A DNA stretch of 64,000 bases from Vulcanimicrobiota bacterium (GCA_017307785.1 JAFKGI010000012.1:1-64000), one strand, 5' to 3'. Positions 53,511 to 60,592 are shown, counted from the first letter of the stretch. Made by a program: numbers and translations. Notes: a model not told the origin generated them from the letters alone.

Positions 53511-53936
53511 TCAGGCCGCGAATCGAGAATAGACGATCAGACCACACAGAAAGAGCGAGAAGAAATAGGTTCCAATGGCCCCGAGACGGCGCAACAGATT
53601 GGGGCGACGCAGATTGAAGAACAAAATGCCGGCCGCGTGCAGAACGCGAACCAGTACCAGCGCCGGTCCCAGCCAGACCGCCCAGGTGGGCATCCCCGCC
53701 CCCATGGAAGAGATCACCGAACACACCAGCATCAGAACGCACAGGATCGGTCCATACTCACAGGCGTTCCGATGAGCTACGATGGCGCGATAGAGACTGT
53801 TGCCCGGGTCTTCTTCACAACCGTGCGATTTCTTGAGGATGATGCGATTCAAACTGCAGTTGAGGGCCAACAGGATCTGCAGGATGGCCAGGCAGGCGAC
53901 GGAGATAAAAGTCACGGAAAAGAAGGTGCTTGTCAT
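53511..53936 (-). CDS. MAPEG family membrane protein (microsomal GST-like)
   Basis: 141 aa with 3–4 TM helices. RAIVAHRNACEYGP resembles the MAPEG RAHxNxxEn motif. Overlaps the M48 gene stop by 1 nt. Confidence 0.5.
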   Translation of the reverse strand: MTSTFFSVTFISVACLAILQILLALNCSLNRIILKKSHGCEEDPGNSLYRAIVAHRNACEYGPILCVLMLVCSVISSMGAGMPTWAVWLGPALVLVRVLHAAGILFFNLRRPNLLRRLGAIGTYFFSLFLCGLIVYSRFAA

Positions 53937-54976
53937 CAGCGCACCTTCAGCCAGACCAGTCGGTCCCCTTCCGAGCCGTTGCGAACGGCCAGCCCAAAGC
54001 GAGTGACACCGCCTCGGACGACCCGCTGAGCCACCTCCAACGTCAGCAAACGACGCTCCAGAGCAGGGTCCGACTCTCCCGCGGGACTGACCAGCAGAAA
54101 CCCGTCCGCGTCCAGGTTCAGATTCTCGAGTTGGCCGCGACTGCTACTCATCAGCTGAGGATCCTGCTTCCACCCGGTGGACTGGACCAGCGCCTGAGTC
54201 AGGCGTTCCAGCAACGGCCTGGCTCGGGTCATGGTCGGTTGCTGCACCGGCGCAGCTCCTCCGGCATTGTAAGCGAGAAGGGGAATATAGCGGTAAGAGT
54301 CGGTGATGCGGTCTTGAGGCATGGGATGGCTGCCTACCATGGCGTTAATGAAGGCAGGGGTCTCGCTGTTGTGCTTGCCCGCCAAAGTCCGCAGAGCCAC
54401 TAACGCATAGGCGGGGTCATAGCCGGCCCGAGCCATCATGGCCGTTCCCAATCGGTCGGCCTCGGACTCATCTGCCTGACTGAAGCGACTGTCGAGCATC
54501 TGATCCACCAGACCCGCCAACTGCACAGACTGCTGATTGATTCGACCGCCGCTCAAGCCGATCAGAACCGCCAGCCAGCCGGCCTTGCGCATCTGCTCGT
54601 TCTCCATCTGACGAATCGAGTGGCGTTGCACGACGTGAGACAGTTCGTGGCCGAGCACGAAAGCAATCTCACCATCGCTCATACCGCGCATCAGGGACCG
54701 CGTCGCATAGACAAATCCACCAGGAAGAGCCATTGCGTTAAACTCATCGCTGGCCAAAACCTTAAACTGAAACTGGATGTCGTTCCGCCCGGCCACCCGA
54801 GAGAGCGCCTGCCCAATCGTCTGTAGTCGACGGTTCAGATCAGGGGAATTGTCGATTCCGTATTGTCCTTCGATCTTCTGCGCGGCAGACCGCCCCAGAG
54901 CGACTTCCTGCTGTGTGCTTACTTCAGCCCAAAGCGCTCCGCTTAGAAGAACCACGAGAAACAGGCGAATCCACAT
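53936..54976 (-). CDS. M48 family zinc metallopeptidase (BepA/HtpX-like), secreted
   Basis: Signal peptide; NAMALPGG; GHELSHV (HExxH); ESEAD third-ligand Glu. Confidence 0.75.
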   Translation of the reverse strand: MWIRLFLVVLLSGALWAEVSTQQEVALGRSAAQKIEGQYGIDNSPDLNRRLQTIGQALSRVAGRNDIQFQFKVLASDEFNAMALPGGFVYATRSLMRGMSDGEIAFVLGHELSHVVQRHSIRQMENEQMRKAGWLAVLIGLSGGRINQQSVQLAGLVDQMLDSRFSQADESEADRLGTAMMARAGYDPAYALVALRTLAGKHNSETPAFINAMVGSHPMPQDRITDSYRYIPLLAYNAGGAAPVQQPTMTRARPLLERLTQALVQSTGWKQDPQLMSSSRGQLENLNLDADGFLLVSPAGESDPALERRLLTLEVAQRVVRGGVTRFGLAVRNGSEGDRLVWLKVR

Positions 54977-59096: not shown

Positions 59097-59104
59097 AGTT
59101 CAGG

Positions 59105-60592
59105 TCAACTCTCGGTGACATCGTCCACCACGGACGTTCGTCGACCCAGGCGCAATGTAAGCCCTTCAAAGAGTTGAATGGTATTGTCCAGACGCAGAGT
59201 GGCGTCTTGACCGGCTCGTACCTCCTGGCCCTGGACCACCGCCATCAGTCCGGCCTGGCGATGCTGGTAGCGCAGCGAAGTCTCACTCACGATCAAGCGC
59301 CCGGTGAGTGGCACCAGTCGCTCATCGTCAATCTTGATATCGCAGTGCGGTCCGTTGCCGATCAGATTGGTGGTGCGGCGCAAAGGCAGTTCTCGGGCTC
59401 CATGAAACAGGCTATAACTATTGATACGAGCCTGCAACGGCAAGTATTCATAGCGAACCACGGTGCGGCCCAGACGGAAGCAATCACCGGAAGCGAGCTC
59501 TTGATGATTGCCCGGAGTCACATCTTCCCCGTTCAGCGGCAGAGTCAGTTCGCCGTCGAGATTGGTCAATACCATTCCGTCGTCTTTGTAGGCCAGTTCG
59601 CAATGAACGGCTCCGCGATCGGTGAGCTCCACCAGCGTCTTCTGGCCAATGCGTCCAAGGGTGATGGGACGTTCCATTTTTCGATGGTCAATCCAGAAGT
59701 GGGTTCCCTTCAAAGGCCCGGCCAGGAAGCGAAGCAAGTGCTGCTCCCCGCGGTTCCACAGTCGGTCCCCCTCGTGGAAGAGACCTCCCTGCAGCCCATT
59801 CACCTGCTCACCAGCCAACAAACGCGTGCGCAAGTCGTTGGCCTGATCGCCGGGAACCAGCAGGACCGCGACCCCGCCCACCAACAGCAGGCTCTGGGTG
59901 GAAAGGAGATTGCCGAATTCCGGTCCCGGATGGCGCTGGCGGACGACTCCCCCGAGCGGAGTATCGAGAAGGACCGGCCGAGAACCCGTCTCCGCGCAAG
60001 TCACGTGAATCTCGGGGGGCTTGTAGAGCAGCAGACAGCGACTGGCGCCCGCCCCCTGCACATTCAAAGTGGGCTCAAAGGTCTGAACCGCGCCGGGCTC
60101 CTGCAAAATCAGGGTTTCCTGCTGAATCGGGTGCAGACGGCCGGCGTCCGGTCCGTTCAAGATGAGAAGCTGATAGGCGGCCTGAGCCGTCTCGCTGGTA
60201 GCCACCGGCCTGGGCGGGGGAATGCGGGCGGGAGCGGCGGCGGCTTCGGCTGCCTCGGTGGCCTTGGGGGTCAGGCGCAACTGCACCACCAGGCTGCCCA
60301 TCTTGATGCGGTCGCCCACGTGAATGTACTGCGTGCCCTGCACAACCTTGCCATTGATCAAGGTGTGGTTGGTGCTGGACCGGTGGGTCAGGAGGAACCG
60401 GTTGCGTTTGGCGTCCCAACTCAGGGTAGCGTGAATGCCTGACACGGTCGGGTCAGGGAAACTGATTCGCGAGGGAGATTCGTGCTTGGAATAAGGGTCT
60501 TTACGGCCGAGTTCGACCTGATCGGCCAAAAGGGGAAACAACTCCCCTTTTCCCTGGCCTTCGACCACCAGTAATTCTAGTTCTGCGCTCAT
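59105..60592 (-). CDS. Multi-FHA-domain protein
   Basis: N-terminal FHA (GR...SRIHATL...LLTHRSSTNHTLINGKVV). At least one further FHA-like module follows (...DCFRLGRTVVRYE). 9 nt upstream of the kinase. Confidence 0.7.
   Translation of the reverse strand: MSAELELLVVEGQGKGELFPLLADQVELGRKDPYSKHESPSRISFPDPTVSGIHATLSWDAKRNRFLLTHRSSTNHTLINGKVVQGTQYIHVGDRIKMGSLVVQLRLTPKATEAAEAAAAPARIPPPRPVATSETAQAAYQLLILNGPDAGRLHPIQQETLILQEPGAVQTFEPTLNVQGAGASRCLLLYKPPEIHVTCAETGSRPVLLDTPLGGVVRQRHPGPEFGNLLSTQSLLLVGGVAVLLVPGDQANDLRTRLLAGEQVNGLQGGLFHEGDRLWNRGEQHLLRFLAGPLKGTHFWIDHRKMERPITLGRIGQKTLVELTDRGAVHCELAYKDDGMVLTNLDGELTLPLNGEDVTPGNHQELASGDCFRLGRTVVRYEYLPLQARINSYSLFHGARELPLRRTTNLIGNGPHCDIKIDDERLVPLTGRLIVSETSLRYQHRQAGLMAVVQGQEVRAGQDATLRLDNTIQLFEGLTLRLGRRTSVVDDVTES

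Follow-up and report, generated by a model that had tools for sequence, protein, structure and literature searches.

An NTT-HEAT-cNBD fusion protein in a lineage-specific gene block with kinase and FHA partners from a Vulcanimicrobiota genome

Layout of the gene block

The window analysed here is a stretch of 64,000 nucleotides (nt) from a Vulcanimicrobiota bacterium (GCA_017307785.1, JAFKGI010000012.1:1-64000). It contains a compact block of minus-strand genes encoding an FHA protein, a Ser/Thr kinase, a fusion protein of 1039 amino acids (aa), an M48 protease, and a MAPEG protein (Table 1). The fusion protein combines a transporter-like membrane domain, HEAT repeats, and a domain that binds cyclic nucleoside monophosphates (cNMP). 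These five genes had been pointed out in an earlier reading of the sequence, referred to below as the original prediction. All five were found in the open reading frame (ORF) listing at the coordinates claimed, and their domain assignments were all confirmed by Pfam. They are part of a co-directional run of nine minus-strand genes that extends from 63380 down to 52991.

From hyp164 to hyp140, the successive junctions of this run measure 90, 19, 27, 8, -4, -1, -1, and 97 nt. The stop codon of the kinase gene overlaps the start codon of the fusion gene in the sequence ATGA (-4 nt). The overlaps within the five-gene block are thus as predicted (-4, -1, and -1 nt), whereas the FHA and kinase genes are separated by 8 nt and not by 9 nt. 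Likewise, a flavoprotein gene similar to coenzyme A disulfide reductase (CoADR) does lie upstream of the FHA gene, at a distance of 27 nt instead of 28 nt. Such tight spacing favours co-transcription, yet it is ordinary for this genome. Other co-directional pairs nearby are similarly close (-1, -8, and +4 nt in the gene table of locus L001, same region), and neighbouring genes that are unrelated to each other can likewise be tightly spaced or overlap. The order of the block nevertheless goes beyond chance, because it recurs in relatives despite rearranged flanks.

Table 1. Genes of the block and domains of the fusion protein, with positions in the 64,000-nt window.
Feature	Position	Strand	Remarks
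hyp164	62886-63380	-	164 aa; first gene of the co-directional run
hyp279	61956-62795	-	279 aa
CoADR-like flavoprotein	60620-61936	-	438 aa
FHA protein	59105-60592	-	495 aa
Ser/Thr kinase	58092-59096	-	334 aa; TTG start
Fusion protein	54976-58095	-	1039 aa; anchor gene of the block
NTT/TLC-like 12-helix membrane domain	56836..58095	-	aa 1-420 of the fusion; central cytoplasmic loop RRWGPLELEEADETS
HEAT-repeat solenoid	55396..56796	-	aa 434-900 of the fusion; Pfam HEAT_2; predicted helix pairs throughout
C-terminal cNMP-binding domain	54979..55371	-	aa 909-1039 of the fusion; predicted beta-roll; phosphate-binding cassette FGEMAILDDEPRSA
M48 protease	53936-54976	-	346 aa
MAPEG protein	53511-53936	-	141 aa
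hyp140	52991-53413	-	140 aa
hyp238	52278-52994	+	opposite strand to the block; orphan protein

The fusion protein

The fusion gene could in principle be two genes joined by a sequencing frameshift. More than 380 homologues were found, the 120 best of which are about 1000-1090 aa long and nearly all aligned over at least 96% of the query. The same protein is called identically on ten public contigs, including contigs of the Vulcanimicrobiota/Eremiobacterota metagenome-assembled genome GCA_001724515.1 and of Logan assemblies. Because the homologues are near-uniformly full-length and the protein recurs unchanged on ten contigs, the ORF is regarded as one real gene and not as a frameshift artefact. 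The nearest labelled genomes are assigned to Vulcanimicrobiota, 'Candidatus Xenobia', and UBP9.

The predicted order of transporter, HEAT, and cNMP-binding domains is borne out by Pfam, by structural modelling, and by Foldseek comparison. Pfam detects cNMP_binding (3e-21) and HEAT_2 (1e-13) together with a weak match to MFS_1 (0.005), and HEAT repeats are matched in all 18 of the fusion relatives searched. An AlphaFold2 (AF2) model built on 18 diverse homologues reaches a mean pLDDT of 83 and contains twelve long helices between residues 11 and 419, followed by the helix pairs of the solenoid.

In Foldseek searches of the PDB, the best solved structures matching the membrane domain are the nucleotide transporters AtNTT1 (9j3l_A, TMt 0.70) and NTT1 of C. 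pneumoniae (9j3n_A, TMt 0.69), with about 480 aligned columns at an identity of just 14-15%. A profile search of the PDB sequences with the membrane domain also ranks 9j3n_A first (E=1.4e-4). The one motif that can be aligned is FWTFTGD.FD...KRLFP of the fusion family, which corresponds to FWGFANEIT...AKRFY of the NTTs, so that FW.F...(D/E)...KR is common to the fusion family and NTT1. The Pfam TLC model (PF03219) has no match in the window fusion at E<=0.01, and its gathering score is not reached; it matches nine of 18 fusion relatives, at best with 5e-6. On the basis of the Foldseek and profile matches to NTT1, the membrane domain is of the NTT/TLC type, which was one half of the predicted 'MFS/TLC-like' label; a generic MFS assignment does not hold. 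Several polar or charged residues in or beside the predicted helices are invariant, namely N124, H125, D132, D135, N274, E277, R325, E329, and N333.

The C-terminal domain superimposes on GlxR and CRP with a root-mean-square deviation of 1.8-2.1 Å at 27% identity (Foldseek). Its phosphate-binding cassette, comprising G972-E973-M974 and R982-S983, is invariant in 18 diverse homologues. The residues expected to contact the cNMP, the conservation of which the original prediction had singled out as a point to check, are therefore intact.

With its 12-helix NTT/TLC domain, HEAT region, and C-terminal domain for cyclic nucleotide binding (cNBD, PF00027), the fusion is a divergent member of the NTT-HEAT-cNBD family. 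The view that no characterised system of this composition was known has to be revised as far as the fusion is concerned, since its domain composition had already been described by Major, Embley and Williams (2017, Genome Biol Evol, PMC5381601). The available text of that survey describes the NTT-HEAT(-cNBD) family from sequence as monophyletic and widely distributed, with members in cyanobacteria, pathogenic Chlamydiae, Deltaproteobacteria, and oomycetes, and assigns no function to it; HEAT solenoids are argued there to be protein-docking platforms. Apart from the survey and passing mentions, no functional study of any NTT-HEAT protein was found in the searchable literature. The range of the family is extended here to Myxococcota, Spirochaetota, and Eremiobacterota.

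The kinase and the FHA protein

The kinase (Pfam Pkinase, 1e-43) is a Hanks-type enzyme. It consists of a basic N-terminal segment, one transmembrane (TM) helix, and the kinase domain, and it lacks a sensor domain. The TM anchor and the absence of a sensor domain hold in all orthologues. The core residues K94, E113, H190-R191-D192, N197, D210-F211-G212, and A238-P239-E240 are invariant in nine orthologues. The catalytic loop deviates from the usual HRDxKxxN motif by the loss of the lysine; its sequence is HRDISPRN in the window kinase, and the orthologues all have HRD[IV][ST]PxN. This Lys-less loop is seen in the orthologues of L006, L008, and L082-L089, in which the other catalytic residues are kept.

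The FHA protein gives Pfam matches to FHA (8e-18) and, in three stretches, to Yop-YscD_cpl. It is composed of four modules, a canonical FHA domain of the phosphothreonine (pThr)-binding type at aa 5-106 and three degenerate FHA/YscD-like modules. In the first module, the pThr-pocket residues G29, R30, S51, H54, and N75 are invariant in 11 orthologues. The other three lack these residues and are conserved yet non-canonical. The protein also holds a strongly conserved segment, GLF.EGDR.WNRGEQH. Matches to TagH and SctD models were obtained as well, with the similarity confined to the FHA domain. Only 25 clusters of orthologues were found in 5.8 billion proteins, all of them full-length and with identities of 46-97%. 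Judging by the conserved catalytic residues, TM anchor, and pThr-binding residues, both the kinase and the FHA reader look functional.

Conservation of the gene order

The neighbourhood of the fusion gene was surveyed at 78 loci, with one genome per species, by searching the ORFs of each locus with the window proteins. Within this set, the full block hyp279-CoADR-FHA-kinase-fusion-M48-MAPEG occurs only in L001-L008, with fusion identities of at least 67%. In L008, the seven-gene block from hyp279 to MAPEG is inverted relative to its flanks and internally intact. A fusion-M48 pair is found in five UBP9-type loci, in which the fusion is 44% identical. The four partner genes are all missing from about 60 of the 78 loci; these loci belong to other lineages (Myxococcota, Spirochaetota, and other Eremiobacterota). 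The five-gene unit is therefore a lineage-specific elaboration and not a family-wide feature.

From this survey alone, which took in at most 80 loci and thereby missed deeper relatives, the block appeared to be confined to relatives with at least 67% fusion identity, an interpretation that was overturned by anchoring on other proteins. Deeper loci were reached via the contigs of FHA-protein homologues and the contig of the fusion homologue P0018 (Table 2).

Table 2. Gene order at deeper loci.
Locus	Gene order	Remarks
L082/L083	flavoprotein-FHA-kinase-fusion-hyp214-DHH/CBS	flavoprotein 29% identical
L084 and L087	PilZ-hyp238 homologue-FHA-kinase-fusion	both junctions -4 nt; a hyp279 homologue is encoded on the opposite strand, just upstream
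L086	FHA-kinase-fusion-hyp257-nitroreductase	
L088	hyp279 homologue-FHA-kinase-fusion-HypA	
L089	hyp238(-), then hyp279-FHA-kinase	no adjacent fusion
L090	hyp238(-), then hyp279-FHA-kinase-fusion-M48-MAPEG	no flavoprotein

FHA, kinase, and fusion genes adjoin one another in seven or more lineages, with fusion identities as low as 42-49%, and the kinase gene adjoins the fusion gene in L001-L008, L082-L088, and L090. The genes just downstream of this trio vary by lineage and encode DHH/CBS, PIN toxin, nitroreductase, HypA, or M48 proteins. The overlap of the kinase stop and fusion start is shared by the closest relatives of the window and three more distant loci; the kinase-fusion junctions in the L082/L083, L084, L086, L087, L088, and L090 loci, listed by size and not by locus, are -4, -4, -4, 1, 13, and 143 nt. 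In L090, the proteins match those of the window with identities of 74% (hyp238), 59% (hyp279), 62% (FHA protein), 66% (kinase), 49% (fusion), 46% (M48), and 49% (MAPEG).

In a rough neighbour-joining tree of 68 fusions, all sampled kinase-linked fusions fall into one subclade of an Eremiobacterota-wide clade; this tree does not include L090, and it is the only basis on which the deeper lineages are placed. The topology supports a single origin of the kinase-linked fusions. The co-distribution of the partners is similarly narrow, with 25 clusters each for the FHA protein and hyp238 and 14 representatives for hyp279, compared with more than 380 fusion homologues. Both hyp279 and hyp238 are found only in this lineage and usually accompany the FHA-kinase-fusion trio.

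The best-conserved unit thus consists of hyp238, hyp279, the FHA protein, the kinase, and the fusion, and the core extends upstream and not downstream. M48 and MAPEG are the less widely conserved part and are accessory. For the predicted five-gene order, this means that FHA-kinase-fusion is kept in at least seven lineages, whereas M48-MAPEG is restricted to the window clade and L090. The five genes are present as a group, but hyp238 was missed although it belongs to the conserved core.

Orphan proteins and accessory genes

Hyp279 has no Pfam family, and just 14 representatives were found in 1.84 billion proteins. Its N-terminal part is helical and is followed by a linker that is acidic and rich in Pro; at the C-terminus lies a conserved amphipathic helix (VVQRVVRWFKGLFKK), which is kept in L090 and may serve as a membrane-targeting element. 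The original prediction had considered this 'further hypothetical' gene as a possible member of the unit. It does accompany the FHA and kinase genes, lying in or beside their unit in L001-L008, L084, L087, L088, L089, and L090.

Hyp238 is the best-conserved protein of the neighbourhood, with identities of 89-96% in L005-L007, 78% in L008, and 74% in L090. None of its homologue clusters has a Pfam domain. In L084 and L087, the gene is located directly upstream of the FHA gene, and in L008, L089, and L090 it is found nearby. An AF2 model (pLDDT 82) predicts a long helical hairpin and a beta domain. Foldseek returns weak PH/PTB-like matches only (best E 5e-3), and consequently no function is assigned.

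The CoADR-like flavoprotein matches Pfam Pyr_redox_2 (4e-43) and contains the single Cys in the motif SIGTCGLPY. Its scores against the NCBIfam CoADR models, 201-220 bits, are about half of the cut-offs of 458-579, and its sequence places it in the wider CoADR/Nox/Npx group. As a member of the unit, which had been suggested, it has a mixed record. The gene is part of the block in L001-L008, and a 29%-identical homologue with the same active-site Cys precedes the FHA gene in L082, but it is absent from L084, L086, L087, L088, and L090.

The M48 protein (Pfam Peptidase_M48, 4e-28), a predicted secreted zinc metalloprotease, has a HELSH motif, a Sec-type signal peptide, and a C-terminal extension of 120 aa with no assigned domain. 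According to NCBIfam, it resembles only the N-terminal protease part of BepA and LoiP. Its scores, 110 bits against a cut-off of 570 for BepA and 75 against 365 for LoiP, fall well short of both families, and its sequence shows neither a TPR domain nor a lipobox Cys within the signal peptide. It is a member of the M48 family only, and neither BepA nor LoiP. The gene follows the fusion gene in L001-L008, L090, and the UBP9-type loci L009, L011, L012, L016, and L047. In the NCBI record of L003 (7787-8881), which is from the same genome as the window, the M48 gene is called 54 nt past the fusion stop and not at the overlapping ATG; the overlapping start is the one conserved in relatives.

The MAPEG assignment of the small membrane protein is clear, with a Pfam E-value of 6e-12 and 46.2 bits against a gathering score of 23.4 (PF01124). 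The gene follows M48 in seven of the loci L001-L008, the contig of L004 ending inside M48, and in L090 (49% identity).

The 164-aa ORF had been described as PilZ-like, a label that is marginal at best. Hyp164 has a weak NCBIfam match to TIGR02266 (6.5e-4), no Pfam PilZ match, and a marginal match to the true PilZ protein of L084, with AVSLES at the motif position in place of DISLNG; PilZ receptors of c-di-GMP are marked by RxxxR and (D/N)xSxxG motifs in a set spacing. At best, its sequence would be that of a PilZ-like barrel in degenerate form. Detection was confined to L001, L006, and L007; the gene is absent from the rearranged L008 and is probably peripheral to the unit.

Proposed function and alternative explanations

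We put the probability at roughly one half that the block forms a lineage-specific operon in Xenobia-type Eremiobacterota (Vulcanimicrobiota) that centres on one NTT-HEAT-cNBD member, and that it encodes a transporter or sensor complex controlled by cNMP and phosphothreonine. In such a complex, the fusion would reside in the inner membrane and move or sense a nucleotide-like solute. Binding of cAMP or cGMP at the C-terminal domain would act through the HEAT solenoid on the membrane domain. The membrane-anchored, sensorless kinase would be produced at a fixed ratio to the fusion and would act where the fusion resides in the membrane, phosphorylating threonines on the fusion, hyp279, or hyp238, or on itself. 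The canonical FHA module would dock on that phosphothreonine, and the three degenerate modules would form a scaffold, as in YscD and EssC. Phosphorylation could then change the assembly or the activity of the complex, in which the FHA protein would act as a scaffold together with hyp279 and hyp238. M48 and MAPEG would be later additions, possibly serving envelope or lipid maintenance, and the CoADR-like flavoprotein another; none of them would belong to the core. Gating of transport by cNMP and phosphorylation, and the redox or lipid role, are functions that we infer, as did the original prediction. 

Several points weigh against this proposal. Solute transport by the fusion is putative, with a single motif aligned to the NTTs. 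Among 11 clade-specific positions of the fusion, none is a convincing phospho-acceptor, and T465 in a HEAT helix is a weak candidate only. As the kinase has no catalytic-loop lysine, its activity is not assured. Other points concern the linkage of the genes. It is from the spacing that we infer co-transcription of the block, and a promoter and terminator scan of 52-64 kb gave counts close to the shuffle expectation and no informative intergenic site. The fusion of L014 nests in the kinase-linked subclade with no FHA or kinase gene nearby, L089 keeps hyp279-FHA-kinase with no adjacent fusion, and the partner genes are missing from the roughly 60 loci mentioned above. Furthermore, the lineages that share the trio also share wider synteny, including TraB, PALP, ATP-grasp, and radical-SAM/Cu-oxidase_4 genes, and therefore the lineage contexts are not fully independent.

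The fusion might instead be mainly a sensor, or 'transceptor', for the sensorless kinase and not a regulated transporter. Occupancy by cNMP or solute would alter the HEAT platform and activate the kinase, with the FHA protein, hyp279, and hyp238 relaying the signal downstream. We consider this a minority possibility, perhaps one chance among several. It would explain why the kinase of all orthologues has a TM anchor and neither an extracytoplasmic nor any other sensor domain. It is in line with the 4-nt kinase/fusion overlap in the closest relatives and three distant loci, which suggests a complex of fixed ratio, and with the failure of the window fusion to match the Pfam TLC model at all. HEAT solenoids are docking platforms for proteins, which also fits a sensor. 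However, many polar and charged residues of the membrane domain are invariant, and the NTT-like FW.F..D...KR motif is retained, as would be expected of a working carrier; the same membrane domain is conserved in hundreds of genomes with no kinase partner.

It is rather unlikely that the genes are co-transcribed or merely syntenic and functionally independent, with the block being an arrangement inherited among related genomes of compact gene spacing and the kinase/FHA pair regulating something else. The points on linkage listed above speak for this, namely the residual synteny beyond the block, the fusion-free L089, and the partner-less loci, as do the tight or overlapping junctions elsewhere in the genome and the way in which CoADR, M48, and MAPEG come and go by lineage. 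The FHA-kinase-fusion order, however, is kept while the downstream genes differ from lineage to lineage, the block has remained intact through the inversion in L008, and it is accompanied by orphan proteins that are restricted to this lineage.

An anti-phage defence module, in which a Pycsar/CBASS-like cNMP-sensing membrane effector is combined with a defence-type kinase, is very improbable and was rejected: the domain-level PADLOC matches (4e-12 for the cNMP domain against Pycsar effectors and 5e-82 for the kinase against PD-T4-6 models) are generic to domains of the CNB and Hanks kinase types, the block has no cyclase, nuclease, TIR, or other defence gene next to it, mobile-element genes do not flank it, and inheritance of the fusion family seems to follow phylum-level groups, its genes lying beside housekeeping genes, rpsB-tsf and nuo among them.

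Comparison with known systems

The closest functional analogy to the proposed cNMP- and phosphothreonine-controlled complex may be the PknF/Rv1747 pair. In M. tuberculosis, the FHA-ABC transporter Rv1747 adjoins the Ser/Thr kinase PknF, and its FHA domains read phosphothreonines and control assembly or activity. As systems, the pair and the window block share no homology. Rv1747 carries its FHA domains in fusion with an ABC exporter, whereas the block of the window has a separate FHA protein, an MFS/NTT-type membrane protein, and an extra cNMP input. A further combination of a membrane kinase with an FHA scaffold is PpkA-Fha1-PppA of type VI secretion, which nucleates a membrane complex. The window block contains neither secretion-system genes nor a PP2C phosphatase, and the likeness is limited to the FHA domain. 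Degenerate FHA modules as structural units are known from YscD and EssC.

SLC9C1, HCN, SthK, and MloK1 carry a C-terminal CNB domain on a membrane transport domain, as does the fusion, and are among the top Foldseek matches via this domain. Their membrane domains (NHE or voltage-gated channel) are unrelated and are connected by a C-linker, in contrast to the 470-aa HEAT solenoid of the fusion. Canonical NTT1/Tlc proteins, the best solved structural match to the membrane domain, themselves lack both HEAT and cNMP domains. They function in obligate intracellular bacteria and in plastids; of such a lifestyle, the window shows no sign.

The NTT-HEAT-cNBD fusions surveyed in 2017 have the same three-domain order as the window fusion; the available text of the survey (PMC5381601) describes their distribution and reports no kinase, FHA, M48, or MAPEG neighbourhood. 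The fusion family was thus known already. The literature found contains no description of its link to a kinase, an FHA reader, and two orphan proteins, nor of the less deeply conserved link to M48-MAPEG. The kinase/FHA association is restricted to one Eremiobacterota subclade and does not constitute a new kind of system. The linkage of fusion and kinase suggests a regulatory logic of cNMP and phosphorylation, and the kinase, the pThr reader, and the two dedicated orphans are testable partners, which makes the block a better biochemical starting point than an isolated fusion gene. Tentatively, the FHA protein, kinase, hyp279, hyp238, and fusion might form one unrecognised membrane signalling complex, in which cNMP and Ser/Thr phosphorylation control the uptake or exchange of nucleotide-type metabolites in free-living bacteria. 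Coenzyme A, NAD, or another nucleotide cofactor might be the substrate, a guess that the recurrence of the CoADR-like partner alone prompts. The stronger claim of one such complex is doubtful; if true, it would reveal the physiological role of the whole NTT-HEAT family, also in cyanobacteria, Chlamydia, and oomycetes.

Neighbouring genes in other lineages and further observations

In other Eremiobacterota-type lineages, a DUF4126 membrane protein of 192-219 aa is encoded immediately upstream of the fusion (L009, L011, L012, L014, L016, L017, L020, L021, L024, L031, and L046). In some loci, its gene and the start of the fusion gene share 4 nt, and in others it ends at most a few dozen nt short of the fusion, which suggests a different dedicated partner of the fusion. 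Another neighbour in partner-less lineages is a divergently transcribed REC-SpoIIE phosphatase. Downstream of the fusion, an SRPBCC/Polyketide_cyc2 protein of about 150 aa is encoded in about 18 loci of a Myxococcota/Spirochaetota-labelled clade, at less than about 100 nt in most of them (e.g. L018, L022, L025, L029, L030, L032, L033, L036, L038, L043, L050, L055, L060, and L075). Several of these loci also encode an LLM-type oxidoreductase and an SDR ahead of the fusion.

Among L008, L012, L013, L017, L020, and P0027, some genomes are labelled Burkholderiales, Selenomonadaceae, or Nitrosotenuis, yet their fusions cluster with Eremiobacterota. These labels look wrong, or the bins contaminated, and the neighbouring genes of L008 are Eremiobacterota-like too.

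L084 contains a GAF-class III nucleotide cyclase gene (14765-15538) about 5 kb downstream of FHA-kinase-fusion, from which the cNMP signal might come. A partial L084 cyclase query, which covers mostly the GAF part and hence yields no valid negative, identified no cyclase in the window.

An ATP-grasp (CP_ATPgrasp_2) gene lies 4 nt from a gene for a caspase-like Peptidase_C14 protein at about 45.3-47.7 kb of the window, on the minus strand (L001 20523-22800). ATP-grasp genes, often with a gene of the TraB/PrgY/GumN family, recur near the FHA-kinase unit in L084, L087, L089, and L090.

Elsewhere in the window, a 777-aa ORF (12900-15233, plus strand) has a C-terminal bacterial bestrophin domain (9e-55) after about 500 residues with no assignment; it is overlapped by a long ORF on the opposite strand, and the gene model is provisional. 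The minus-strand ORF at 28352-30784 encodes 810 aa with domains of the eukaryotic Major Vault Protein (MVP_shoulder 1e-25, Vault_3 4e-11), homologues of which are, to our knowledge, rare in bacteria. Two overlapping HSP70-like genes at 15404-19836 on the minus strand, encoding 897 aa (with a C-terminal DUF3731 'DnaK-related' domain) and 580 aa, look like a non-canonical Hsp70 pair.

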